Shown here piece after piece: positions 48,313-62,907 of a DNA stretch of 64,000 nt. The position numbers and the translations under genes were made by a program. Origin of the DNA: a virus; the IMG/VR virus record IMGVR_UViG_3300009180_000022; one strand, 5' to 3'. Each line of letters opens with the position of its first letter. The stretch's first letter is position 1. Below the pieces are notes generated by a model. The model was not told the origin of the DNA and made no database searches. It saw nothing but the letters and a program-made list of their open reading frames with translations.

Positions 48313-48837
48313 TTACAAAAAGTGGTTAGACAATTCTAGTTCAGGATTGCGTCCCCAGATATATCCAGGAATCAGTTCCTTGCCTCGGCGTTCATGCCCG
48401 GTATATGGATCATAGCACCATTTCATTCCAACATTCCTTTTATGGCCCATGGCACGTAAAGAAATAATATTCTTTGTTGTGTTAGTATGAACATGACCGG
48501 TATGATTGCCCCTCTTACCCTTCTTGCCCTCACTAATACGTCGACGTTGATATTCAGATTTAGGAACCCCGGTCTTCTGTTCTGACCATAGTTTACGATG
48601 ATGGGCCTTCATATCATCGGTCCAATACTTCCATCCAAACTTCTTTTTAATATGACAGTCCATGATGACTGATTCTATATTATACTGCTTCTTGGTCTTT
48701 GTTATAACGGATGTTAGATTGGTTTGATCTTTAACATAGGTCAACACCTCACCCGCCATACCGTACTTGGCACGAAACTCCTTATCACTTCTATCATATA
48801 CGATGATACTATTTTGGTGCTGAATAAGTCTATGCAT
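48313..48837 (-). CDS. Basic protein with NUMOD3-like DNA-binding repeats (homing-endonuclease-related)
   Basis: PKSEYQRRRISEGKKG and HTNTTKNIIS repeats, IPGYIWGR end; no nuclease motif seen. Confidence 0.55.
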   Translation of the reverse strand: MHRLIQHQNSIIVYDRSDKEFRAKYGMAGEVLTYVKDQTNLTSVITKTKKQYNIESVIMDCHIKKKFGWKYWTDDMKAHHRKLWSEQKTGVPKSEYQRRRISEGKKGKRGNHTGHVHTNTTKNIISLRAMGHKRNVGMKWCYDPYTGHERRGKELIPGYIWGRNPELELSNHFL

Positions 48838-49027
48838 GGTTCTGATGGGGGCCTGTTATGTTATTAATACGTTGATTATCTATAAGAAAACATTCCTCAA
48901 GTAAATATATTACGTTTTTTGGGATGCAAGATAGTAAGGTAAACTTACTAAAAGGGGAAAGAGTTCAGAAAGCAGTGGATTTAATTACAAAGAATTCCTA
49001 TAATCAATCATCAACAGGAGAAAAGCG

Positions 49028-49306
49028 ATGTTTGTACGAGTAAAGGGTAAATTTTTGGATGGTTCGTCTCTTTGGTTCCCTCTGCCGGGGCTGACGAATG
49101 CTAGGGTGAAGGAACTTTTTGGAACTGGGCTCTCCCGCCAAGATCTCGAAAAGTACTCTGATTCGATCGTGATTCGTAGTGAAATGACGAACAATCTGTA
49201 TTCGCTGTACAAATGCTATGGAACGTGGAGGGTTGGCAAGATGGCCGGCGTCACGCCTATCCAGGCCGAATTCGATGCAAAAGAGTTGGGAAAGTTGTTG
49301 ACTTAA
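49028..49306 (+). CDS. Hypothetical early protein
   Basis: AGGAG RBS from repeat; stop inside next repeat. Confidence 0.7.
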   Translation: MFVRVKGKFLDGSSLWFPLPGLTNARVKELFGTGLSRQDLEKYSDSIVIRSEMTNNLYSLYKCYGTWRVGKMAGVTPIQAEFDAKELGKLLT

Positions 49307-49351
49307 TTACGCCGTTTGACTATAATTGGATATCAACAGAGGAAACAACGA

Positions 49352-50233
49352 ATGAGCAACATCACATTTGAAGACGGTAAGTACGTAGGTCGCATCGATG
49401 GTAAGGTCGTGGTTCGTAGCACTAGCAAGTACTATGTTCAGAAGCGTGTAGAGGGCGTTCCTTCTACCTCGTTTGTGGCACCGGTGGAGGCAACTCCCGC
49501 CGTTGAGTTCCCTATCAACCAGCGTTTCGAATTTGTGTTCGATCTGGTGACGATGGTGGCTACGGGTGCTACTGCATCGGCTATCATTACCGGTGAGGGC
49601 GGATTGGGCAAGACCCATACCGTGGTGCAGGCATTGCAGGCTGCCGGTCTTCGTGATATCTCTGAGGTGCCAGCTGGTGAGGTTGTGCCTCCTAAGTCGA
49701 CGTATCGCCTGGTGAAGGGCTTCTCTACTGCCAAGGGCCTGTATCGTATCTTGGCCGAGAATGCTAATTCGGTGATCGTGTTCGATGATTGCGATAGCGT
49801 TTTGAAAGATGATAATGCTTTGAACATCCTCAAGGGAGCTTTGGATACGTATGGCAAGCGCTTCATCTCCTGGAACTATTCGCGTGATGATGACGATATC
49901 CCTCGCTTCTTTCAATTCAAGGGTGGCATTGTTTTCATCTCCAACAAGACGCTTCCTTCGATCGATCAGGCTGTTCGTTCGCGTGCTATGTGCGTTGACC
50001 TGTCTATGACCCTGGATCAGAAGATTGAGCGTATGGCGATGATTATGCGTGAAGATAGCTTCATGCCCGAGGCATCGATGGAATGCAAGCAAGCATCGCT
50101 GGATTTAATTAACAGCCTTAAGGAGAAATCTAAAGAGGTGTCTATGCGTACGCTTATCAAGACGACGAAGATTGCAATGGCCGGACGTCCTAACTGGAAG
50201 TCTTTGGCCGAATACATGCTCCTTCAGGGTTGA
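49352..50233 (+). CDS. AAA+-type P-loop ATPase
   Basis: GEGGLGKT Walker A, IVFDDCD Walker B, FISN sensor, SR arginine finger. Confidence 0.85.
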   Translation: MSNITFEDGKYVGRIDGKVVVRSTSKYYVQKRVEGVPSTSFVAPVEATPAVEFPINQRFEFVFDLVTMVATGATASAIITGEGGLGKTHTVVQALQAAGLRDISEVPAGEVVPPKSTYRLVKGFSTAKGLYRILAENANSVIVFDDCDSVLKDDNALNILKGALDTYGKRFISWNYSRDDDDIPRFFQFKGGIVFISNKTLPSIDQAVRSRAMCVDLSMTLDQKIERMAMIMREDSFMPEASMECKQASLDLINSLKEKSKEVSMRTLIKTTKIAMAGRPNWKSLAEYMLLQG

Positions 50234-50282
50234 TTTAATTACGCCGTTTGACTATAATTGGATATCAACAGGAGAACACGAT

Positions 50283-50894
50283 ATGAGCCACACATTACAG
50301 CCTTATGACATCAACGAAATCGGTAGCTCTGGCTACGGCCGGATCACGGTAAAGATCCAGGGCTACTGGTCTAGCGATCCTATCACGCTGTATGTTCAGC
50401 GTAATAACTACGGATCTGATGAAGGTTGGAAGACGTCTCTATCTCATAGCTCCGGTGGGCGTGATTCAAAGGAAGTGGTTTCGGACATGGAAGCCGCACG
50501 CAACTTCGCCAGTGCCATGCTTACACTGGCTGATATTGGTGAGACGTTGATTGCCGAGCAAGGCGTGGCCCTTGAGGCTGCATATGAGGCTGAACGTGCC
50601 CGGCGCCTGGCGGTGGCCGAGGCGGAGAAGGCTGCCAAGGTTGCTGCGATTGAAGCCGACCCAGCCATTGGTCTGGCTGTTGCATCAGGCATTGTGGCGG
50701 AGATGGCGGCTGCAGCTGCTAACACGTATGCAGTGACTCGTGTGTTCCGTAAGCGTGGATCTGCGGTGACTTCCAATGTCGTGGCACGATGCAACTACAA
50801 GACCCGATTTGCGGTGAACGGATGCACAGTCTCTAAGAAGGAAGCCATCGAATACATCGCCTCCCACGCCGAATTGGTGGAACAAAAGAGTTGA
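50283..50894 (+). CDS. Hypothetical early protein
   Basis: ATG supplied by repeat RBS; Ala-rich helical middle. Confidence 0.7.
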   Translation: MSHTLQPYDINEIGSSGYGRITVKIQGYWSSDPITLYVQRNNYGSDEGWKTSLSHSSGGRDSKEVVSDMEAARNFASAMLTLADIGETLIAEQGVALEAAYEAERARRLAVAEAEKAAKVAAIEADPAIGLAVASGIVAEMAAAAANTYAVTRVFRKRGSAVTSNVVARCNYKTRFAVNGCTVSKKEAIEYIASHAELVEQKS

Positions 50895-50943
50895 TTTAAT
50901 TACGGGTGCCGACTATAATTGGATATCAACAGGAGAATACGAT

Positions 50944-51168
50944 ATGAACTTAGAAATCGGCACCCAGATCCAATACACATGCGCCCTCGGAACCCTGAAG
51001 GCTGTTGTCGCCGGCATCAAGATTGCCCCTACTGCAAGGAAGGGTTTTCTGAACACCTGGATCACCCTGGATCTGCCAGTACAGGAAGGCATTGAGCGTG
51101 CCCACAAGACTATGATCCCAGGTAACGATGGTGCCCTGAAGATGTTCAAGGTCGCGGTGATTGCATAA
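50944..51168 (+). CDS. Hypothetical early protein (SH3-like size and pattern)
   Basis: Repeat-derived RBS; 74 aa. Confidence 0.65.
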   Translation: MNLEIGTQIQYTCALGTLKAVVAGIKIAPTARKGFLNTWITLDLPVQEGIERAHKTMIPGNDGALKMFKVAVIA

Positions 51169-51231
51169 AAGGGTGGATTTAATTACGCCGTCTGACTATA
51201 ATAACGTATGTTCAGTAAGAAAGGTAACAAA

Positions 51232-51459
51232 ATGCAAGCACAAGTTGGATCTGTCGTGAAGACGTTTGATTTCCCTGGCCACACCGATTGCTACATGATC
51301 GGACTGGTAACCAAAGTGGAACAGGGTCTGCTGCATTTGAACACGATCAAGCGTGTGATGCAGGGCAAGGAACTGGCAGCACCTGCCACCTATCAGACTC
51401 CGGTACAGGGTGCCTCGTTCATGGATGCATCTTTCGAACGCGTGGTGGTGCTAGCATGA
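51232..51459 (+). CDS. Hypothetical early protein
   Basis: AAGG RBS after repeat promoter. Confidence 0.6.
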   Translation: MQAQVGSVVKTFDFPGHTDCYMIGLVTKVEQGLLHLNTIKRVMQGKELAAPATYQTPVQGASFMDASFERVVVLA

Positions 51460-51623
51460 GCATTATGAAGCACATCTATTCGCTGGTCCAGGAGCAGTAT
51501 TTGGATGGTGATGACGTCGACGACATCGCCTATGAGTTAGCCGAACGCCTGGACCTTGATCCAGAAGATGCCATGTCTATAGTGCTGCGGCTGGTAGAGG
51601 AGCTGAAAGAGGAGTTGATTTAA
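51456..51623 (+). CDS. Small very acidic protein
   Basis: ATGA overlap; 55 aa, D/E-rich; stop inside next repeat. Confidence 0.6.
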   Translation: MSIMKHIYSLVQEQYLDGDDVDDIAYELAERLDLDPEDAMSIVLRLVEELKEELI

Positions 51624-51667
51624 TTACGTGATTTTCCTATAATTGGATATCAACAGGAGAACACGAT

Positions 51668-51760
51668 ATGACACTCAAAGAATTCATCCAAGGCACTGCC
51701 GTAGGCATGCTGTTTGCTAGCCCCCTAATCATCGAACTTATCAAGGATCTCTGCAAATGA
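51668..51760 (+). CDS. 30-aa hydrophobic peptide
   Basis: MTLKEFIQGTAVGMLFASPLIIELIKDLCK behind repeat RBS; ATGA overlap with next ORF. Confidence 0.55.
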   Translation: MTLKEFIQGTAVGMLFASPLIIELIKDLCK

Positions 51761-51969
51761 ACACCGTAGCTTCTTACAACGCCTTTGCCCGTATGGCCAC
51801 TTCCCTGGAAATCATGGGTTACAGGGACCACAATGCTGTGATCTCCCCGACAGACGCCGGTCGTGATGCCTTCACCTCCATGGTATATGACCTGGACTAC
51901 ATGGGTCGGATCTCCCGTGAGGTCACCGAATACGAACTCTTCAACAGCCAGGAGTGCGAATTCGGTTGA
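51757..51969 (+). CDS. Hypothetical early protein
   Basis: ATGA-coupled; stop inside next repeat. Confidence 0.6.
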   Translation: MNTVASYNAFARMATSLEIMGYRDHNAVISPTDAGRDAFTSMVYDLDYMGRISREVTEYELFNSQECEFG

Positions 51970-52018
51970 TTTAATTTCCGGTTATTACTATAATTGGATA
52001 TCAACAGGAGAACACACT

Positions 52019-52222
52019 ATGACACACTACGGAATGTTTACTGATATGGGCAACAGCTTGATAGCCCGCGTTGTTCTGACAGCACGTCAGTTTGCACTCA
52101 GCGAGGCCTCTGTACGCGCCATGCTGGAGGCGATTGCAAAGGATGAGACGTATAGTGAGGCGACTGATACCGCCGTTCGCGAAAGTGTGCTGGCCGATCT
52201 CCGCTCGCCCCGTCAACTGTAA
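52019..52222 (+). CDS. Hypothetical early protein
   Basis: Repeat RBS; YGMFT..GN, EATDTAVRE. Confidence 0.65.
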   Translation: MTHYGMFTDMGNSLIARVVLTARQFALSEASVRAMLEAIAKDETYSEATDTAVRESVLADLRSPRQL

Positions 52223-52232
52223 GGAGCAACCT

Positions 52233-52409
52233 ATGAATAACCCTATCCCTCGCTGCGGCCTGTTTGCAACCCGTACCCTGGAGGCTATACAGGCCGATAT
52301 AGAAGGCCTTCCACCTACCCAGAAGGCACTGGTATACCAGTACGTGATGGCCACACTCAATGCATGTCATGCCATGGTGAAGGAAGAGATCGCCATGGAG
52401 TTGACTTAA
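52233..52409 (+). CDS. Hypothetical early protein
   Basis: AAGGAG RBS; stop inside next repeat. Confidence 0.6.
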   Translation: MNNPIPRCGLFATRTLEAIQADIEGLPPTQKALVYQYVMATLNACHAMVKEEIAMELT

Positions 52410-52459
52410 TTACGTAATCTGGTTATAATCACTTGTGGTTGTTAAAAAGGATACACACT

Positions 52460-52822
52460 ATGACTGACACTATGACACGCCTTGAGGAACTCCAATGCAT
52501 TTTCTGGGATATGTACAAAGACGCCTACGGTGTCCGTCCCCGTGGCATTGATACGTCCACCTGGGACGAGGCTACCTTTAACGCCGAGTTTGACTACCTG
52601 GTGGACTTGATTGGCAAGAACGAGCAGGCGCGCCAGATCGCCGAGCAAGAGGCCGCCCATGCCTTTGAGATGCGTGTGCAATCCATCATGGCGTGCGGGG
52701 CCAAGGATCGTGCCATGGCCCTACGTTGGATCCATGAGGCCGAAGGCTCTGACGGTGATGACGAGTACCTGTGCTATCTGGTTGGCCTGCCCTATCGTTA
52801 CTTTGCCAAGGAGGCTGTATGA
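52460..52822 (+). CDS. Conserved hypothetical phage protein
   Basis: WDMYKDAYGVRPR, GAKDR..ALRW, GLPY.YF. Confidence 0.7.
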   Translation: MTDTMTRLEELQCIFWDMYKDAYGVRPRGIDTSTWDEATFNAEFDYLVDLIGKNEQARQIAEQEAAHAFEMRVQSIMACGAKDRAMALRWIHEAEGSDGDDEYLCYLVGLPYRYFAKEAV

Positions 52823-52992
52823 CTGATCGTACTATGCGAGTGATCCCCAGCGTGGGTGAAGCAGGCTTGGACCCAGAAGCCAGTTCGGGCAACGGGCAGT
52901 TCTATGTCCGTCTCTACGATGGATCCTACGATATGTGTGGCTATGACACCATCGAAGAAGCCTGGGAAGAACTCATTGCCATTGCAGGTTGA
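52819..52992 (+). CDS. Hypothetical early protein
   Basis: GGAGG RBS, ATGA overlap, stop inside next repeat. Confidence 0.6.
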   Translation: MTDRTMRVIPSVGEAGLDPEASSGNGQFYVRLYDGSYDMCGYDTIEEAWEELIAIAG

Positions 52993-53045
52993 TTTAATTA
53001 CGGATATTGCTTATAATTGGACATCTAATCTACTAAGGAATCACA

Positions 53046-53414
53046 ATGAACTACTTTTTTAATGATACGCCCGTTACTGAGGCCGAATACAATAAGCTTA
53101 TCACCGAGGCGGTAGAGGCGGCCGAAGTCCTGGAGCATGCTAAGGCGGCTGCATTGGCTGTTGCCAAGGCCGAAAAGGAGGCTTTGCCTAAGAAGGTGGC
53201 AAAGGCCAAGGTTGTGAAGGCTCCTAAGGGTCCTAAGAAGATGGCAACCCCTGAGGTCAAGCTTGGTTCTAAGACCGATACCGCCCGTAACCTGATGCTT
53301 GGTGTTGGTGTAGAAAACAAGGCCGCATGCATTTTGGCTATCATGGAAGGTCTGGGAGTGACTAAGGGTAACGCCTCCTGCTACTACGCCAACGTGATGA
53401 AGAAGCTGGGATGA
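53046..53414 (+). CDS. Lys/Ala/Pro-rich putative DNA-binding protein
   Basis: KKVAKAKVVKAPKGPKK linker then a helical C-terminal domain. Confidence 0.55.
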   Translation: MNYFFNDTPVTEAEYNKLITEAVEAAEVLEHAKAAALAVAKAEKEALPKKVAKAKVVKAPKGPKKMATPEVKLGSKTDTARNLMLGVGVENKAACILAIMEGLGVTKGNASCYYANVMKKLG

Positions 53415-54035
53415 TGATGACCCCTGAAGACGTCTGGGACGAACTTGTGGCCATGTTCGGTGATCGCCTGCCGGATATGGACCACGAACCCATTCGCTTT
53501 GCCTACTACGTCAAACTGTACCTATACCAAAAAGGATTGAATAATGCTAACCCGTCCTAAAGAACACGAATATGTGAGTCATGTGGCTTATACGCGTGCC
53601 TTGGAAGAATACTGTGATGCACTAGAAAAGGAGAAAACCAATGGATGAAACACCGAATGCAGCTGCATTCGCCAATGCAGGCTACGCCATCTACAACCAT
53701 CCGAAACCTGTCGGATGCTGGGTGCTATACGAACAGGCGCCTGTTAAGACGTCATTCTCCATGTACTACAAGCCCACAGACGAACAGATCAAGAACACCG
53801 AGGAACTCCTTGGATGGACCTGGAATGATGCAGAATGACCGAACCCCGCCGTATCACCAAACCCGAACGTGTCTATGAATACATGCTGACTGGGGAATGG
53901 GCATATGCCGACTTCACCCAATGGCTTGGTGAATTCGTGGAGGCCTCTCAGGACAAGGCCTATCATGCCGGCCTGCAGTGTGGTATAGAGGTCGAAAAAG
54001 AACGGGTCTCCCAGGCGAAAAAACAGTTGACTTAA
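53411..54035 (+). other. Run of four overlapping small hypothetical ORFs (53411-53560, 53544-53648, 53641-53838, 53835-54035)
   Basis: Start/stop overlaps and RBS motifs; last stop inside next repeat. Confidence 0.55.
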
Positions 54036-54081
54036 TTACGTCATTCTCCTATAATTGGATATCAACAGGAGAAAACGACTT

Positions 54082-54312
54082 ATGACTAACTTGAATACCT
54101 ACGTAGACCGCATCAACAAATTCGCCCGCATCTTTGGCAAGCGCCAGCTGTCCTTGGCCATTGCCGCCGATCGTCAGACGATTGCCGAAGGCCTGGAAGG
54201 TGATCTGAGCCCCGAAAACCTAACCTGTGACGGTGAACTGTCTGCCGCCCAGGTCCGCCAGCGTGCCAAGTTCCTCAATGCATGCGTCAAAGAACTGGCG
54301 GCTCTGAAATGA
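54082..54312 (+). CDS. Conserved hypothetical phage protein
   Basis: Repeat RBS; DLSPENLTCDGELS. Confidence 0.65.
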   Translation: MTNLNTYVDRINKFARIFGKRQLSLAIAADRQTIAEGLEGDLSPENLTCDGELSAAQVRQRAKFLNACVKELAALK

Positions 54313-55053
54313 ACAAACGAATTAAAGAACTGGCCGAACAGGCTGGAATGATTATTGTTGACGATGAGTTTTCAACTTATGGAAAGTTTGCTGAAAAGTT
54401 CTCCGAGTTAGTAGCCACACATTGTGCTAATATCTGCCTAGAAATGGCAGCAAAGTGTGCAGGACTACCAGGTGACGGTGCTCTTGCCAAAGATTGTGCC
54501 TACTGGATTCTAGAAGATTTTGGAGTAAATAAATGAACGAACGAATTAAAGAACTATACGAGCAGAGTCTCACCCACACCACCGGCAAGGACCACGCTGG
54601 CAATCCTATGCTGGTTATTAAACAGAACCCTGAAAAGTTTGCCGAGTTGATTGTTCGGGAATGTCTCGAAGAATTGCGATATACGGTTCTTGATACACAG
54701 GAATTGCGTCGGGACAAAAGCACTGATTATCAAGTGGGTTGGGAAGATGGTATGTTTGATGCCGGTGAAACGATTAAGAACATTTTTGGAGTTGAAGAAT
54801 GAATCAACATCTAATAGATAAACTGCTACACAAGGCTGGTGCTCGCTTTGGTGCCGAGGGTATTGACTATTCTGGTTTTACGTCAAGCAAGTTCGCCCGG
54901 TTGATTGTTCAGGAATGTATCACTATTGTGGACGAGCAGAAAGAATGCTTACACGAAGAACAGAAATATTGGCATGATCGAGACTATGGATATGCGTTGG
55001 CAGTGGACGATGCCAGCAAGGGTATCAAACAATTTTTCGGAGTTGAAGAATGA
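54309..55053 (+). repeat. Three tandem paralogous small CDSs (54309-54536, 54533-54802, 54799-55053)
   Basis: MN.RIKEL-like start, KF(A/S).L(I/V)..C core, FGV(EE/NK) end; ATGA overlaps. Confidence 0.8.
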
Positions 55054-55142
55054 ACTTCTTCTGGGGATTCCTAGTGGGCTACATTGTTGGGGTGCTGTAT
55101 ATGTGTTACCGGTCTAATGAAGATCAGAGAAATAACAGTTGA
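55050..55142 (+). CDS. 30-aa single-TM peptide
   Basis: MNFFWGFLVGYIVGVLYMCYRSNEDQRNNS; ATGA overlap; stop inside repeat. Confidence 0.55.
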   Translation: MNFFWGFLVGYIVGVLYMCYRSNEDQRNNS

Positions 55143-55179
55143 CTTAATTACGCCGTTTGACTATAATAGGACATACAAA

Positions 55180-55304
55180 GGAAGAACGCACATACCGCCG
55201 GTCGTATCACACTGAGTAATCGGGGTGCCGGAGATAGTCTCATGGAGACTGAAGGGATGCTAGTGTATAACCTGTGCACGGGCCGATTGCTAGAGTGTGC
55301 TTCC
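55180..55304 (+). ncRNA. Candidate structured RNA or structured leader
   Basis: Follows a repeat promoter lacking the RBS half; nested complementary segments GGAAG/CTTCC, CACACT/AGTGTG, AGTAATCGG/CCGATTGCT, GTGC/GCAC, AGTCTC/GAGACT. Confidence 0.55.
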
Positions 55305-55335
55305 TGCGTATACCTATTTTTGTTTGGAGATTGTT

Positions 55336-55716
55336 ATGAGCTATATGCGTGATTATTGTGATGTGAGTGTGCTGAAGGGCAAGACTCTGGTTTCTTGCGT
55401 GTCGATCGATGACGTGATCACATTCACGACTTCTGACGGTGATGTATACAGAATGTACCATGGGCAAGACTGCTGCGAGTCGGTGTACATCGACGACATC
55501 GTTGGCGACTTGCAAGACTTGGTTGGTTCTGAGATCCTGATGGCAGAGGAAGTGGAAGGCGAAAGCCCTGCTGAATTTGATCCTAACGATTACGAATCAT
55601 ACACATGGACGTTCTACAAGTTTGCAACGATCAAGGGATATGTGGACATCCGTTGGTGCGGCTCGTCTAATGGGTACTACTCAGAGGGCGTTGACTTTTG
55701 TAAGATAGGAGATTAA
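55336..55716 (+). CDS. Conserved hypothetical acidic phage protein
   Basis: GGAG RBS; H.QDCCE.V, TWTFY, SNGYYSE. Confidence 0.7.
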   Translation: MSYMRDYCDVSVLKGKTLVSCVSIDDVITFTTSDGDVYRMYHGQDCCESVYIDDIVGDLQDLVGSEILMAEEVEGESPAEFDPNDYESYTWTFYKFATIKGYVDIRWCGSSNGYYSEGVDFCKIGD

Positions 55717-55717
55717 T

Positions 55718-56754
55718 ATGACTGAACTAGAAATATTGCAGGCGAAAGCTAAGGCGATCCTGGAAAGCTGTGCCCATTGGAAGTCGTGTCAGGACGGCTC
55801 CTATGAAATGGCCCTTCACTATGCAGGGTATGATGCATTGTGCAAGCAGATTTGGGAACACAAGAATGAACTGTTGTGATGATTACGGTAATTGTATCCA
55901 AGGCCCCGAATGCCCTATTCGTAAAGAAAAAGTACTGACCGACCCGTTTAAAGCATACGTAGTTAGCAACGCATCTGATACTATCATTATGGATCCAATC
56001 AACCGGGCTGAAAATCTTACTTTGCTTGAGTTAGTTTATGATGCCGGTTATAATCAAGGACGTGCATCAGTGATGCAGGAACAACTTAAACTACTGGAAA
56101 CAACATGACCGGAATACCTGCTGGACTAACGTTAGATTTTGAAACTGCTGACCGAATCACTCTCTTGAACCTTAAAGAGGCGTTGGATAATCTTGAAAAA
56201 GAAGTGCATAACCATCTTGAAAACAGCAAATGGATGCATCCAGAAGATTTGCAAGAAGCAACAGCGTATCTTATTCCTGCACTAAAGAGGTTGGTTAAGT
56301 ATTATGGTGGTTCATATGAATAGCCGTATCAAAGAACTTGCTGCTAAAGCCGGATTTATTTTCTGGGAAGATGAGTCATGGAGACCTGAAGGTCAACTCA
56401 TAGACTGGTCATCAGATTATGATAGCGCATTGGAGCACTTTGCCGAGTTACTTAAGGAAGAGTATGAAGTGTGATGTATGCGGACTTGATGATAAAAATG
56501 CCAAAGACTGGTCCCACGTCTGCGCCTCTGAAATAAAAACTGATGATCGTACATTAGTTAATTTGACCGATCGGGAGCTATACGAGGCAATATTGCTTCG
56601 CGGCTCAAAGCAAATATATGATGAGTTCCTATTCCAGAAAACCAGCCTGCAAGGCCGCGGAGAGGTGCAGTTGCGGCAATGGGCTAGAGATGCACGAGAT
56701 TTCTTTTATCATGAATTTGTGCGTAAGAATGAAAACGTAAAGGATAAACTATGA
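55718..56754 (+). other. Run of small hypothetical ORFs (55718-55879, 55866-56108, 56105-56323, 56316-56474, 56464-56754)
   Basis: Overlapping starts/stops; 56316-56474 is another MN.RIKEL...FAEL paralog. Confidence 0.55.
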
Positions 56755-58406: not shown

Positions 58407-58447
58407 TATTTATAAGTGTTGCTTTAATTTTCATTTGTGACTATAAT
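58407..58447. promoter_or_regulatory. Back-to-back promoters: late TATAAATA on - (58407-58414) and sigma70-like TTGCTT-17-TATAAT on + (58419-58447)
   Basis: Both motifs read directly in the intergenic gap. Confidence 0.75.
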
Positions 58448-58532
58448 CAATCATGAGGTAAGGAATGCTATGCCAGGATTTAACAGTAAACGCCAGATGG
58501 TGAATGATAAATTTATTGAAGGAAATACTAAT

Positions 58533-59543
58533 ATGCGTAAGTTAGCTACAATTCGAACAATCGATGAACTGCGTCCTATTGAGGGTGCGGATGCAATCGA
58601 AGCTGCCGTTGTTGGTGGCTGGACCTGTGTGGTAAAGAAGGGTGAGTATAAAGTAGGTGACCGTGCTGTATACTGCGAGATTGATTCATGGATCCCTCAT
58701 GAGCTAGCATCATTCCTATCTAAGGGAAAAGAGCCTCGCGAGTTTGAAGGCATCAAAGGCGAACGCCTACGTACGGTTAAGTTACGCGGTCAGCTGTCTC
58801 AGGGTCTGTTGCTTAACCTGGATCAAGTTATTCCTCAAACCAATTCGTTTGTCGAAGGTGAAGATGTGTCTGAGCTGCTTGGAATTATCAAGTGGGAGAA
58901 GCCAATGAATGCTCAACTGGCTGGCATGGCTAAGGGCAATTTTCCTTCACTGATTCCTAAGACTGATCAAGAACGTGTCCAGAACCTGAAGAAGGAAATT
59001 GCTGACGCTACTGGCCTTTATTTTGAGGTATCAGAGAAGCTGGAAGGCTCTTCAATGACTGTATACCAGATCAAAGGTGAGTTTGGTGTTTGTTCTCGCA
59101 ACCTTGACCTTAAGGAAACAGAAGGCAATGCATTCTGGGCTACTGCCCGCCGCGATGATATTGAGGCAAAGATGAAGGTTGTAAATGAGCACTGGGACTT
59201 TGCAATTCAGGGTGAGTTGATTGGACCTGGAATTCAGGGCAATATTTACAAACTATCTCAGCCTATGTTCTGTGTATTTGATGTGTATGACATTCAAGAT
59301 GGATCTTACCTGGATCCAGATACTCGTCGTGCTTTGATTGCAAAAATGGATCTGAACCACGTACCTGTGCTTTTGATTGATAAAGACCTTGTAGTGGGTT
59401 CTGTTGAAGAAATTTTGCAGTGGGCCGAAGGTGCATCAAAACTAAACGAAAAGCAAGAGCGTGAAGGTATTGTGTTCAAAGAAGCTAACGGTGGAATGTC
59501 TTTCAAGGCAATCTCTAACAAGTATCTACTAGGAGAAAAATAA
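58533..59543 (+). CDS. RNA ligase (DRB0094/Rnl2-like family); alternative in-frame start at 58470
   Basis: MRKLATI, IEGADAIE, LRGQLSQGL, EKLEGSS motif I, QGELIG, FDVY, EGIV, FKAISN. Confidence 0.88.
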   Translation: MRKLATIRTIDELRPIEGADAIEAAVVGGWTCVVKKGEYKVGDRAVYCEIDSWIPHELASFLSKGKEPREFEGIKGERLRTVKLRGQLSQGLLLNLDQVIPQTNSFVEGEDVSELLGIIKWEKPMNAQLAGMAKGNFPSLIPKTDQERVQNLKKEIADATGLYFEVSEKLEGSSMTVYQIKGEFGVCSRNLDLKETEGNAFWATARRDDIEAKMKVVNEHWDFAIQGELIGPGIQGNIYKLSQPMFCVFDVYDIQDGSYLDPDTRRALIAKMDLNHVPVLLIDKDLVVGSVEEILQWAEGASKLNEKQEREGIVFKEANGGMSFKAISNKYLLGEK

Positions 59544-59833
59544 TGAATATTTCAAAGATTAAAACTAACGTGCGTGTATCAAGCATTGTTGCAATCGACC
59601 TGTCTGCCGATGAGTGGGGGCTGGATACTAAGCACACGCCTCGTGCAGTTATTGACAAGGTTGCAACCTTTCTAAACAAAAGGTTCAATCGTGGGTATAA
59701 CATTGGACTAACCGTATGTGAACTTGTGAGTTCCATGCATGAGCTAATGGATAGCTTTAAGATCTACGGTGCAAACCACCCTGAGCCTAACGAGGTGTTA
59801 AAGAACTTAATGTATAGCGTGTATAGAAAGTAA
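59543..59833 (+). CDS. Hypothetical protein
   Basis: AGGAG RBS, 96 aa. Confidence 0.6.
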   Translation: MNISKIKTNVRVSSIVAIDLSADEWGLDTKHTPRAVIDKVATFLNKRFNRGYNIGLTVCELVSSMHELMDSFKIYGANHPEPNEVLKNLMYSVYRK

Positions 59834-59836
59834 TCT

Positions 59837-61597
59837 TTATCCCCAGTAATTTCCAGCTGCGTAATGGCTATAATCATTTAATGACCCTGGGTAACTATTT
59901 TGGTTTACCGGATTCCGGGCGTAGGACCCATCTGTGGTGACATTATACAATGAACTTGTCTGCCCGCTTGAAGTAATATTTGTTCCATTTACTAAATCAG
60001 TCAATACATATGTGTAATAAGTTGACCAGGCTGGAAATGATTGTAAAACTTCCGTAAAATGAATCACTCCATCATAACCGGGTATGTATTCATATGCACT
60101 ACCTGCATCGTCCGTATTAGTTTGCCCTACTAATTCACGTAGACCGGCGTTAGTAGGTTGAGGTGTAAGAGAGTATAATTTATCTCTTTGAAATATAGTA
60201 CTATGACGGATCTGTGCTGTGGTAGCTCCTGTATGCGCGCACGGGAACGCGGTTATACTATTACCTTGCGAGTCAAAAGCGACTCTACCTCTCGATGGGT
60301 AAGCTGTATTGTCATCAAATAATGACATCCGCACATTGTTTGAGGCTCTATAGACATCTAAAGTTCGTAGACGCAACATGTTTCCATCTAAGTCAAATAT
60401 TGCAAGAGTACCTCTGGATGACGCAGACGTACCATTAACATACAAAACTCCCTCGGCTGAATTAAAAGTAATACCCGTGAAATCATTAGATAGAGTTGTA
60501 CCTCCAACAGCCAAAGATTTCGCCCACATTACTTCAGCCGATTCACCGTTTATTTTTACAATAAGCGCTTGTTGGTATCCTGAAGTCACTGATCGGAATC
60601 CACATGCGTATATGTTACCAGCAGAATCATATGTTACACTGTTAAACACGCCTTGACGCGTAGCACCGTCCGGCCAAGTAATAGATCTATACCAAATGCC
60701 ATTTCCATTTAAGTCCGAGACAATAACTAACGGGTTAGCATCTGTAGAGGGGTATTGAGAATACCCTACAGAAGCCATTCTAGTACCGGTATTATTAAAT
60801 GCTGTTTGGTATAATTTTTGTGTTTTACTGTCTGAGATTCCGCCAAAACCTAAAAAAACATTAGTAGTTAAATTAGAGTTTAACTTCCACAACATACCTT
60901 CATAACCTAGAGCACCATACCCCTGATACTGCGAGCCGGTTATATAAATCCCACCATCAGGACCTATTGCTATATGATCCGGCTGGTCTGGCTGTAAATT
61001 TGTAATCGTAAGTTCGCGGTGGTCTAATAAAATACCATCTGAAGATCTAATGACAAGTAGGTGCACCCAGGACCCAAAATGTTAATTAACCAATACATAT
61101 AATGTAGATTGATCACTGGATATAGCAATACTTTGACAGTAAGTACTATAAAGGTTTCCGGTCCCATATGTGCCTGGCGTTGCACCAGGCGTATAGTACT
61201 TATTCCAAACTATATTTGTTCCTGCTGCAGTAGTATTTATTTTTTGTATCACAGCGACAGAGCTCGAACTGGAGCTGGTAATAGCTCTATTATTAATATG
61301 TCCTACTGCGTAAATAGAATTTTGTGAGTTATCAACAACAAAACCCGCAGTAGTTAGGCTATGGTTGGCCGGTGTGCCGTTCAGTCTTATGTGTCTAGGC
61401 AATCCAGATCTTCCATACCCAGAACTCATTGATATTTGCGACCCGGCTGTAGTTGCACCGTTAACATAGCGAAAGTAGCTATTATTCATATTTCGCTCTA
61501 GATAAGAGTTGTTAGTTGCATTTAAGGCTATTAATCTGTACAGCAGTTCTCTGTTATATTGCCCAATACTGATTGCACCTGATGCTGGTAATGCCAT
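59837..61597 (-). pseudogene. Beta-propeller-like virion protein interrupted by one in-frame TAA (61082-61084)
   Basis: ORFs 61082-61597 and 59837-61066 are in the same frame, 5 codons apart (..YVLVN*HFGSWVHLLV..); MALPASGAIS N-terminus, D..GNIY..G / W.K repeats on both sides. Confidence 0.65.
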
Positions 61598-61621
61598 AAA
61601 ATTGTCCTTGTTGTTAACCTA

Positions 61622-61665
61622 TATTTATACGTCCAGTTGATTTCTTTTTAGTAACACAATACAAT
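61622..61665. promoter_or_regulatory. Back-to-back promoters: late TATAAATA on - (61622-61629) and TTGATT-17-TACAAT on + (61637-61665)
   Basis: Both motifs read directly in the intergenic gap. Confidence 0.7.
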
Positions 61666-61670
61666 ACCTT

Positions 61671-62150
61671 ATGCCTAACATTACTAAACCTATCCTTTAC
61701 ATGCTCATCGGGGTACCTGGTTCTGGAAAGAGCACCTGGATATCCAATCAGTTATGGACTTGCGAATGTGCATATGTATCAACTGACACCTACGTAGAAG
61801 AGTATGCCCGTATTGAACTTAAGACATACAGTGAAGTATTTGAATACTTTATGCCTACTGCTGTTAAGTTAATGTTGAATGATGTAGTTAAGGCTAGTAA
61901 AGCTGGTAAGGACATTATCTGGGATCAGACTAGTACAACCACTGCATCTCGAACGAAAAAGTTTCATATGTTACCGGAATATTATACAATTGCGGTGGTG
62001 TTTAGAACACCGGCCAGGGATGAGTTAGATGTTAGACTTAGTGGGCGCCTTGGCAAGCATATTCCTAAAAACGTTATTGATTCAATGATTGATAAATGGG
62101 AAGAGCCAACCCTGGAAGAAGGTTTTGATGAAATTTGGTATGCTGCTTAA
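61671..62150 (+). CDS. Polynucleotide-kinase-like P-loop protein (AAA_33)
   Basis: GVPGSGKST, STD, IIWDQT, R..R lid, EEGFDEI. Confidence 0.82.
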   Translation: MPNITKPILYMLIGVPGSGKSTWISNQLWTCECAYVSTDTYVEEYARIELKTYSEVFEYFMPTAVKLMLNDVVKASKAGKDIIWDQTSTTTASRTKKFHMLPEYYTIAVVFRTPARDELDVRLSGRLGKHIPKNVIDSMIDKWEEPTLEEGFDEIWYAA

Positions 62151-62167
62151 ATTATAGGAGATTTATT

Positions 62168-62536
62168 ATGCGTGAAAAACGTGAACGTATTATTAAGCCA
62201 TTTACCAACAAGTTTGGTCAAGTGATTGAACCAGGCATGTCTGTGTTTGTTGTTACCACTTGTACACACCAGACACATATTACTAAAGGTGAGTATGTTG
62301 GTTATATCGAGCGAGATGTGTATGGTAAGATGGAACCATTTGTGCAGGTGCTAGTTGAGTATGATAAAGCATATTATGTGTACAAAGACATACAGGAGCG
62401 TGTTAACTGGAAGACATTTAGCTCGAATCGTGATTGTGAATGGAGATCAGAGAAAGCTCATCGCATCACAACACTAAATTACAATCGCATCCTCCGTGCT
62501 GACTCTTCAGCAGAAGATCTTGTAGCAGTTGTATGA
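62168..62536 (+). CDS. Hypothetical protein
   Basis: AGGAG RBS before ATG 62168. Confidence 0.6.
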   Translation: MREKRERIIKPFTNKFGQVIEPGMSVFVVTTCTHQTHITKGEYVGYIERDVYGKMEPFVQVLVEYDKAYYVYKDIQERVNWKTFSSNRDCEWRSEKAHRITTLNYNRILRADSSAEDLVAVV

Positions 62537-62907
62537 GCCAGGTAGTCAATGCCATAATGGCAACAAAAGAGGATCGTCGCCGTCTAAAGCAAACAAAGCT
62601 GTTTCAGGATGTGTTCTCTGTTCGTGAGGATATTCAAACAGTATCTGCTGGTACAGAGATACAATATAGGATTGGCGTCACACTTGGCTCACAGTGCTGG
62701 GTTAGTGAGATGGAAAAACTCAAGAGTGATGATGCTCTTATCCATGCCATTGAACGTACTAAGCGTCAAGTAATTGAGGCTATCTTTGGTGAGTTCCGTG
62801 CTGACTTCCGAAACATTGAACGTGCTCTGTATGATAGCGATATCGAAACAGCTCGTGTGATGTTTCATGCTTTGGAAGATAGAATGTTTACGGTGACTCT
62901 TGACTGA
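62533..62907 (+). CDS. Hypothetical protein
   Basis: ATGA overlap, 124 aa. Confidence 0.6.
   Translation: MSQVVNAIMATKEDRRRLKQTKLFQDVFSVREDIQTVSAGTEIQYRIGVTLGSQCWVSEMEKLKSDDALIHAIERTKRQVIEAIFGEFRADFRNIERALYDSDIETARVMFHALEDRMFTVTLD

Follow-up and report, generated by a model that had tools for sequence, protein, structure and literature searches.

Genomic context of the array

We analysed a 64-kb stretch of DNA from an uncultured virus (IMG/VR record IMGVR_UViG_3300009180_000022; "the window" below means this whole stretch of 64,000 nucleotides) by motif, promoter, fold, and protein-family searches and by comparison with relatives. Our subject is an array of 22 genes within it, in which the element T(T/G)GAYTTAATTAC-N10-TATAAT recurs in 11 copies, all on the plus strand and all within positions 48976-55167. 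Matches to PHROG families included a T4-type major head protein, tail sheath, large terminase, gp46-like SbcC, and RNA ligase. The best match of the capsid protein among cultured phages was to Stenotrophomonas phage DLP_6 (69%), followed by Methylophilales, Pelagibacter, and cyanobacterial T4-like phages. A megablast search of the array against 50,697 phage records gave no nucleotide match, and neither Rfam nor tRNA scans of the whole window gave a hit. The window comes from a divergent, uncultured freshwater T4-like myovirus, and the array fits the profile of its immediate-early hyperplastic region.

T4-type phages carry promoter-early stem-loop cassettes (PeSLs) that combine sigma-70 early promoters with a stem-loop and a Shine-Dalgarno (SD) sequence and are clustered among ORFan genes (PMC2839356, PMC4122927). 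We consider it probable that the early hyperplastic region described here is built on modules derived from PeSLs, now without the stem-loop, that serve as recombination substrates.

The array begins at a strand switch, adjoining a minus-strand gene (48313-48837), and all copies of the element lie among small genes within a 6.2-kb part of the 64-kb window. Proteins of 30-203 aa are encoded by 21 of the 22 genes, and the largest gene encodes an AAA-type ATPase of 293 aa (49352-50233; phrog_1250, like the T4-type nrdC.10), which with a 92-aa gene (49028-49306) makes up cassettes 1-2 (49028-50233). Cassettes 3-7 (50283-52409) hold small ORFans at 50283-50894, 50944-51168, 51232-51459, 51456-51623, 51668-51760, 51757-51969, 52019-52222, and 52233-52409. 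Cassette 8 (52460-52992) consists of the genes g11 (52460-52822; phrog_21968) and g12 (52819-52992). Cassette 9 contains genes 53046-53414, 53411-53560, 53544-53648, 53641-53838, and 53835-54035, and cassette 10, ending at 55142, contains 54082-54312, three paralogues (54309-54536, 54533-54802, and 54799-55053), and 55050-55142; within these last two cassettes (53046-55142) the genes are linked by ATGA-type overlaps. All are on the plus strand. Family matches above threshold were obtained for just two of the 15 array genes scanned, the AAA gene and g11. The array genes are probably host-takeover genes, the least understood part of phage genomes.

Relatives were gathered by motif and protein scans and fall into four levels. 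An IMG/VR search with the AAA protein for close relatives recovered only one contig, 3300020042_010954 (G003), which is 96% identical to the window and is also the only contig with a relative of the 203-aa gene 50283-50894. A sister group (G001, G002, L034, and L036) has AAA proteins ~70% identical to that of the window, a third level (L038/L039 and L040) has AAA proteins 66-67% identical, and a distant group comprises many freshwater contigs with AAA proteins ~50% identical. Dense arrays of consensus promoters are found in all of them, each with a lineage-specific flavour: TTGACTTTATTAC with AAAATAACAG ahead of it in the sister group, GTTAC-TTGCATTAATTTCC in L038/39, and TTGACA-N17-TATAAT with a TACACACACTAGGAGC leader in the distant group.

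The repeated element

With at most one mismatch, the 13-mer TTGAYTTAATTAC occurs 11 times in the window, always on one strand and always inside the same 6.2 kb; with at most two mismatches there are 21 matches compared to 6.8 ± 2.5 in shuffled sequences, none of which (0/100) got to 21. A sigma-70-like early promoter, T(T/G)GAYT-17-TATAAT, is present in every one of the 11 copies, and the promoter scan listed the nine TTGAYT copies as TTGACT or TTGATT separated from TATAAT by 17 nt, in agreement with the consensus at 10-11 of its 12 positions. Ten copies run on into a leader with an AGGAG- or AAGG-type SD sequence followed by an ATG at offset 52-59, so that the SD sequence and start codon of the downstream gene lie at the 3' end of the element; the eleventh leads into a non-coding leader instead. 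The copies delimit units of 1, 1, 1, 1, 2, 2, 2, 2, 5, and 5 genes and account for ~10% of the array length. An earlier note on this DNA, made from the letters and open reading frames (ORFs) alone, had described 11 copies, most of them giving a promoter and AGGAG-ATG to the next gene, and units of one to five genes between them; its coordinates all hold, and the ORF calls agree with its units. A weak twelfth copy lies at 56026.

The likeness among copies extends beyond the promoter hexamers. Seven share the leader TGGATATCAACAG(G)AG, of 24-35 nt, exact shared runs between copies reach 37 nt, and the 10-nt variable spacer is identical in three copies and one base off in a fourth. The identical string that the earlier note had seen in the copies at 49298, 50230, and 55139 is the 24-nt TTAATTACGCCGTTTGACTATAAT. 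One explanation, which we regard as possible but doubtful, is that the copies are only promoters: they would be alike because selection maintains the strength of the sigma-70 promoter and the efficiency of the leader, and perhaps a box for a bound factor, genes would turn over through short-homology and illegitimate recombination of the general kind that T4-type hyperplastic regions typically show, and the repeats would be bystanders. The TTWATTWC box, conserved across lineages whose AAA proteins are ~66-70% identical, fits such selection, but the copies are also identical at positions with no known promoter role, namely the 10-nt spacer in three copies and the 24-35-nt leader in seven, which argues against this explanation.

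Stop codons within the promoter

Based on stop offsets taken from explicit gene calls, nine of the ten genes upstream of a copy end inside the element, just as the earlier note had stated, with every ORF end correct. In the following, each copy begins at the first base of its -35 hexamer. Five genes end at the TGA of TTGA (offset +1): the AAA gene 49352-50233 at copy 3 (50230-50282; TGA at 50231-50233), which shares a 37-nt exact run with copy 2; gene 50283-50894 at copy 4 (50891-50943; TGA at 50892-50894); gene 51757-51969 at copy 7 (51966-52018; TGA at 51967-51969), a TTAATTTC variant; gene 52819-52992 at copy 9 (52989-53045; TGA at 52990-52992); and the 30-aa gene 55050-55142 at copy 11 (55139-55167; TGA at 55140-55142), which is a promoter half only. 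Four genes end at the TAA of TTGAYTTAA (offset +6), so that the -35 hexamer also codes for their last two residues, Leu-Thr or Leu-Ile. These are gene 49028-49306 at copy 2 (49298-49351; TTGACT-17-TATAAT), which receives Leu-Thr-TAA (stop at 49304-49306) from the copy that supplies the promoter and SD sequence of the AAA gene; gene 51456-51623 at copy 6 (51615-51667; TAA at 51621-51623); gene 52233-52409 at copy 8 (52401-52459; TAA at 52407-52409), which has its own leader; and gene 53835-54035 at copy 10 (54027-54081; TAA at 54033-54035). The tenth upstream gene, 50944-51168, stops 5 nt ahead of copy 5 (51174-51231; offset -8), which has a distinct leader, AACGTATGTTCAGTAAGAAAGGTA, and lacks the TGA because it reads TGGATT. 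Copy 1 (48976-49027), the first after the strand switch, is also TGGATT-17-TATAAT and has an AGGAG leader with the ATG at 49028.

Two of the three frames of the consensus contain stops; the remaining frame has none anywhere in the element and leads in phase to the next ATG, at offset 53. The earlier note had asked whether the overlap of stops and element exceeds chance. The use of element stops by nine of ten genes does not, taken alone (P = 0.10); the placement of all ten genes in the two stop-bearing frames does (P = 0.017). The stronger and real signal is the tight spacing: the distance between coding sequence and -35 hexamer is at most 5 nt at every copy, compared to 6-50 nt in relatives. 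Stops overlapping the -35 hexamer are also frequent in the distant arrays, about a third of them at the TGA of TTGACA, and in some of these arrays the coding sequence passes through the -35 hexamer into the spacer (e.g., g12 in L074). The stop-in-promoter layout is thus better seen as the end point of compaction in the clade than as a unique device, and the window shows it in its most regular form. Compaction alone would give the overlaps in the distant arrays, a point in favour of copies that are promoters and nothing else.

Stem-loops in the relatives and their absence here

Upstream genes of the sister group terminate 6-50 nt ahead of the -35 hexamer, and the spacer in between holds a conserved hairpin, GTAACTA-N4-TAGTTAC, followed by AAAATAACAG and then the -35 hexamer. 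The hairpin of L038/39 directly adjoins the -35 hexamer, and in the distant group many of the spacers between -35 and -10 are themselves hairpins, such as GGCCC-GAAA-GGGCC. The minimum free energy of these spacers averages -3.9 kcal/mol in the distant arrays, with 35% at or below -4, compared to a mean of -0.14 kcal/mol in the window. The distant and sister elements, with a sigma-70 promoter, a stem-loop, and an SD sequence, are PeSLs as defined in the literature. In published PeSLs the position of the stem-loop varies: it may precede the promoter boxes, lie between them, or overlap them (PMC2839356; PMC4122927). We tested three placements in the window (upstream of the -35 hexamer, between the hexamers, and around the promoter), and none was supported: no stable stem-loop adjoins or overlaps the window copies, no terminator-like site was found at any of the 11, the fold energies of upstream, promoter, and whole-element regions did not differ from those of shuffled sequences in 8/11 copies, and the window contains the sister hairpin motif GTAACTA-N4-TAGTTAC no more often than expected by chance.

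The difference between the two layouts is clearest at the end of the AAA gene. The protein ends in QG in both the window and G001. In the window the gene ends CAGGGT|TGATTTAATTAC, that is, GGT|TGA running into the -35 hexamer, and in G001 it ends CAGGGTTAA (GGTTAA), followed by 46 nt containing the hairpin and then CAG-TTGACT. Because the stem-loop is kept in three other sublineages, the simplest reading is that the spacer was lost in the window lineage at every copy. Judged from these outgroups, the stop-in-promoter layout most likely arose by loss of the stem-loop spacer, and the window elements would be a local form, or descendants, of PeSLs without the defining stem-loop. Such a loss from every copy also argues against the repeats as bystanders.

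A different kind of structure might enclose the promoter, since GTTGAT..AATTA can pair with TAATT..ATCAAC; such a dyad could be the operator of a regulator, the site of a recombinase, or an RNA structure formed by read-through transcripts. A bulged hairpin of this kind is the predicted minimum-energy fold in 6/11 copies, and in 49 copies taken from eight genomes the arms pair in 76% of cells. Nevertheless, the fold energies equal those of dinucleotide shuffles (z ~0 in most copies), the pairing of 76.0% compares with 75.0% in column-shuffled controls with no excess covariation, the C/T variation in TTGAYT has no compensating partner, and copies with other leaders lack the right arm entirely. 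We find a functional dyad very unlikely and treat the pairing as a by-product of the conserved boxes.

Gene order among relatives

The array is collinear with that of the 96% relative over 48785-54331, including all ten shared repeats, with 235 substitutions and one 5-nt gap. At ~70% identity, both order and content differ. Eight of the 22 array genes have homologues in the sister group and L039, and most genes of cassettes 3-7 have none in the sister arrays. The 92-aa gene, with a homologue only in the sister group, and the AAA gene are the only array genes that keep their position wherever they are present. The other six shared families lie on the same strand throughout but in different orders: F3, F5, F16, F4, F11, F9 in the window; F3, F4, F16, F5 in G001; F9, F3, F4, F5 in G002 and L036; and F3, F11, F4, F5 in L039. 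Fixed order and content in relatives, which the earlier note had named as grounds for abandoning its model, were not what we found. An origin of the array by tandem duplication from a single ancestral cassette was rejected, as genes across cassettes are unrelated save for the paralogue family at 54309-55053.

One indel runs exactly from repeat to repeat. G001 has an extra 201-bp unit, consisting of a repeat and a 48-aa hydrophobic ORF, that is bounded exactly by two identical modules and is missing from G002, L034, and L036; it is the footprint expected of direct-repeat recombination. So clean an indel argues against the repeats being bystanders, as does the presence of one promoter-plus-leader variant before unrelated genes: TATAAT-AACGTATGTTCAGTAAGAAAGGTA heads F20 in the window and F15 in the sisters, which we take as supporting evidence suggestive of promoter swapping. 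In other events an internal SD-ATG forms one end and the leader or SD sequence of a module the other, or an SD-ATG microhomology is present at both ends. Three sister genomes, but not G001, carry a block [F9-F17-promoter] between F6 and F3, and the window segment 55339-55708, and with it the DUF7448 gene, is missing in G003, with the junction at a repeated GGAGATTnnTATGA. The unit of exchange does not appear to be strictly repeat-to-repeat, and single genes seem to move at SD-ATG junctions as well.

The 48-aa peptide cassette of G001 (L031, 5617-5763) also has its TAA stop inside the AAATAACAG extension of the next repeat and has no stem-loop, which is the window-type layout within a sister genome.

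The array resembles an integron in that unrelated small genes of the same orientation are split by one repeated site, and a dedicated site-specific recombinase could in theory insert and excise cassettes there. Integrases are not known from T4-type phages. Three Pfam scans (cut-offs of 0.01 or 0.001) of ~30 ORFs of the window, including the array genes through 52822 and most large flanking ORFs, matched no recombinase family and no integrase or resolvase domain; the earlier note's "without a dedicated integrase" therefore stands for these ~30 ORFs. Moreover, the repeats are promoters rather than attC-like imperfect palindromes with covariation, and indel ends are spread over promoter, leader, and internal SD sites, as homologous recombination would give. 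We consider an integron-like system extremely improbable.

Exchange between phages and possible exchange among copies

IMG/VR contains 95 relatives of g11 (among them loci L071-L149), which nearly always lie 60-80 nt behind a consensus promoter in a dense array with differing neighbours (g12, DUF7448, g10, or the AAA gene before or after it). The g11-g12 cassette is 75-84% identical at the nucleotide level in ~95 other viral contigs, and the homology is confined to 52444-52988, that is, to one cassette from just before the ATG to the next -35 hexamer; the promoter and leader ahead of g11 are lineage-specific. In two of these contigs (221 kb and 192 kb), with ~80% identity in the cassette, the capsid proteins are only 36-38% identical to that of the window, so the cassette has moved between very different phages.

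Evidence for exchange among the copies is more limited. The copy at the 51174 position in G003 is of the 49298 type, from which the window copy 51174 differs at three positions. When modules are compared between the window and G003, six copies show no differences, and the differences cluster in three others (3-4, 8, and 12); copy 7 differs at 8 positions and copy 9 at 12, including the 5-nt gap. The 10-nt spacer accumulated 14 differences per 100 positions compared to 3/190 in the conserved boxes. Gene conversion as an explanation of this patchiness was set aside, its signal being only modest beyond a patchy background. The patchy divergence and the shared spacers are suggestive only of exchange among copies.

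The array also differs in composition from the rest of the phage. The GC content at third codon positions (GC3) is 0.56 in the 22 array genes compared to 0.32 in 16 other genes, with the paralogues 54309-55053 (0.30-0.43) and gene 53544-53648 as exceptions; at first positions (GC1) it is 0.56 in the array and 0.47 elsewhere, and at second positions (GC2) the values are equal. Sister arrays are likewise richer in GC than their flanks. Differences in codon usage between early and late phage genes have been published (PMC5683454). Matching to host tRNAs, biased gene conversion, and foreign origin are candidate explanations for the GC3 split, which is strikingly large. Recent foreign origin of a GC-rich island was ruled out, as the conserved AAA gene and the sister arrays are GC-rich too.

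A model for the modules

We propose that each transcription unit is headed by the same composite module. Its 5' part holds the end of the preceding gene (the stop and the one to three codons ahead of it), which overlaps the -35 hexamer TTGAYT; its middle part the clade-specific TTAATTAC box, the 10-nt variable spacer, and the -10 hexamer TATAAT; and its 3' part the shared ~24-nt leader with the AGGAG SD sequence, leading to the ATG of the next gene. With a match of 10-11 of 12 to the sigma-70 consensus and a 17-nt spacer, the module is predicted to fire on host RNA polymerase right after infection, and since there is no terminator between units, transcription should read through and add up downstream. 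Loss of the stem-loop spacer would have left ORFs abutting the -35 hexamer and using the TGA or TAA that is present by chance in two frames of the consensus. Substrates for the phage's own homologous recombination would be provided by the exact runs (up to 37 nt) and by the universal -35, -10, and SD-ATG microhomologies; over evolutionary time this would give gain, loss, and reordering of cassettes, swapping of promoters, and exchange with other phages. The window encodes gp46/gp47-like SbcCD, and homology patches of less than 50 bp are said to suffice in T4 (cited in PMC2839356), so in principle such genes and small patches of homology would be enough and a dedicated recombinase would not be needed.

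Several observations weigh against this model. G003 shows no rearrangement at any of the ten shared repeats, and six indels separate it from the window in the next 9 kb, where such repeats are rare. Three of the better-resolved indels end at SD-ATG microhomologies inside cassettes and not at the promoter. The background is patchy too, with 26% of ordinary 55-nt windows free of differences and 4.8% having at least eight. Conservation of the TTAATTAC box across lineages could also reflect a bound factor and not recombination. The collinearity of G003, the nearby indels without repeats, and the indels that end at SD-ATG microhomologies are what would be expected if the repeats were bystanders. 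On the other side, PeSLs have been shown to recombine into mini-circles (PMC2839356, PMC4122927), the experiments having been made in RB49 and phi1 (PMC2839356). Comparative support for the PeSL recombination model in the present array seems to us real but incomplete. The capture, excision, and reordering of genes that the earlier note had proposed gains from the varying order and content among relatives and is, for this array, no more than plausible.

A bolder version of the model would see in the module a universal adapter of stop codon, promoter, and ribosome-binding site, such that any ORF placed between two adapters would be terminated, transcribed, and translated, and the arrays of many phages would form an integrase-free network of cassette exchange. 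We offer this only as a tentative and rather unlikely extension. If true, cassettes could move both inside one genome and between very distant phages by means of the adapters and the -35, -10, and SD microhomologies, g11-g12 being an example, and the network would play an integron-like role. The array GC3 (0.56 vs 0.32) might then be a footprint of frequent GC-biased recombination and not of codon selection.

Comparison with known systems

The precedent of PeSLs, which the earlier note had named, is real and apt, and the recombination model that it put forward is the published PeSL model. Like the window copies, the PeSLs of RB49 and phi1 (Arbiol et al. 2010, PMC2839356) join SD and ATG to a near-perfect sigma-70 promoter whose spacer is 17 nt long, and they are dense repeats among small ORFans in a T4-type hyperplastic region. 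Indels and replacements that separate related phages are associated with these PeSLs, which are proposed to act through homologous recombination by the phage machinery. Unlike them, the 11 window copies have no stem-loop or terminator; the upstream stop lies inside the -35 region and not in an AT-rich region 5' of it, there being no AT-rich intergenic stretch or other spacer at the copies; the copies are far more identical to each other, with exact runs of up to 37 nt that include the leader; and they have the conserved TTAATTAC box. The PeSLs of the Vibrio phages nt-1 and KVP40 and of PST and T4 (Comeau et al. 2014, PMC4122927) resemble the array in their lineage-specific promoters and flanking motifs, in consecutive ORFs each preceded by an element, and in the "degraded" or half PeSLs described there. 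Their stem-loop lies just upstream of the promoter, as in our sister group, whereas in the window it is absent from all copies and not only from a few degraded ones.

Integron arrays share with the window the tandem, same-orientation, unrelated small genes, the repeated junction, and a cassette content that varies between relatives. They differ in that the window has no attC-type structured site and no integrase among the ORFs scanned by Pfam, and in that exchange in the window appears to use homology or microhomology at variable points. Integron cassettes are mostly promoterless, whereas each junction in the window is a promoter with a ribosome-binding site. The elements appear akin to the early promoters of T4, which depend on host sigma-70, have extra conserved positions beyond the hexamers, and are clustered in early non-essential gene regions. 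The T4 consensus is TTTACW-N17-TAYWAT (cited in PMC4122927), unlike the TTGAYT-N17-TATAAT of the window with its TTAATTAC box and shared leader.

PeSLs have so far been described in a few cultured coliphages and vibriophages, and the window together with more than 100 metagenomic contigs shows that dense arrays of promoter cassettes are general in an uncultured freshwater branch of T4-like phages. The comparison also suggests that a composite element can lose its terminator half and fuse with the upstream stop while the array persists. Such a loss would separate the function of promoter plus homology from the insulation that has been proposed as the role of the stem-loop. A natural comparison for the study of repeat-driven shuffling is provided by arrays that have the stem-loop and arrays that lack it, a cassette found in very different phages, and one clean repeat-bounded indel.

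Other features of the array and its flanks

Copy 11 is followed by a non-coding leader of ~168 nt (55168-55335) and then by the DUF7448 gene (55336-55716). This non-coding stretch, behind the last and best promoter copy, is ~97% conserved in the 96% relative and has no Rfam match at gathering score. The small paralogue family (N-terminus MNxRIKEL..., C-terminus ...FGVEE) occurs at 54309-55053 and again at 56304-56474, overlapping head to tail. Its copy number varies in every relative, with up to eight in G001 and three in G003, by gene calls that recognise only two of the window copies. In G003 (L033), the three-paralogue block at 54331-55028 is replaced by 1258 nt of other paralogues, and a 446-nt stretch of the window (55870-56316) is replaced by 23 nt.

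The promoter family has an outlying copy at 58419-58447 (TTGCTTTAATTTTC...TATAAT), and the GTG annotated as the start of the RNA ligase gene (58437-59543) falls within it; the sister arrays, too, contain TTGCTT variants. In the region 58511-62881 (sites 58511, 59543, and 62510-62881) the 96% relative carries an extra 144 nt and ~1 kb, and the window an extra 371 nt. The minus-strand ORFs at 59837-61066 and 61082-61597 correspond to a single ORF of 596 aa in the 96% relative, and represent either a split in the window or a fusion in the relative.

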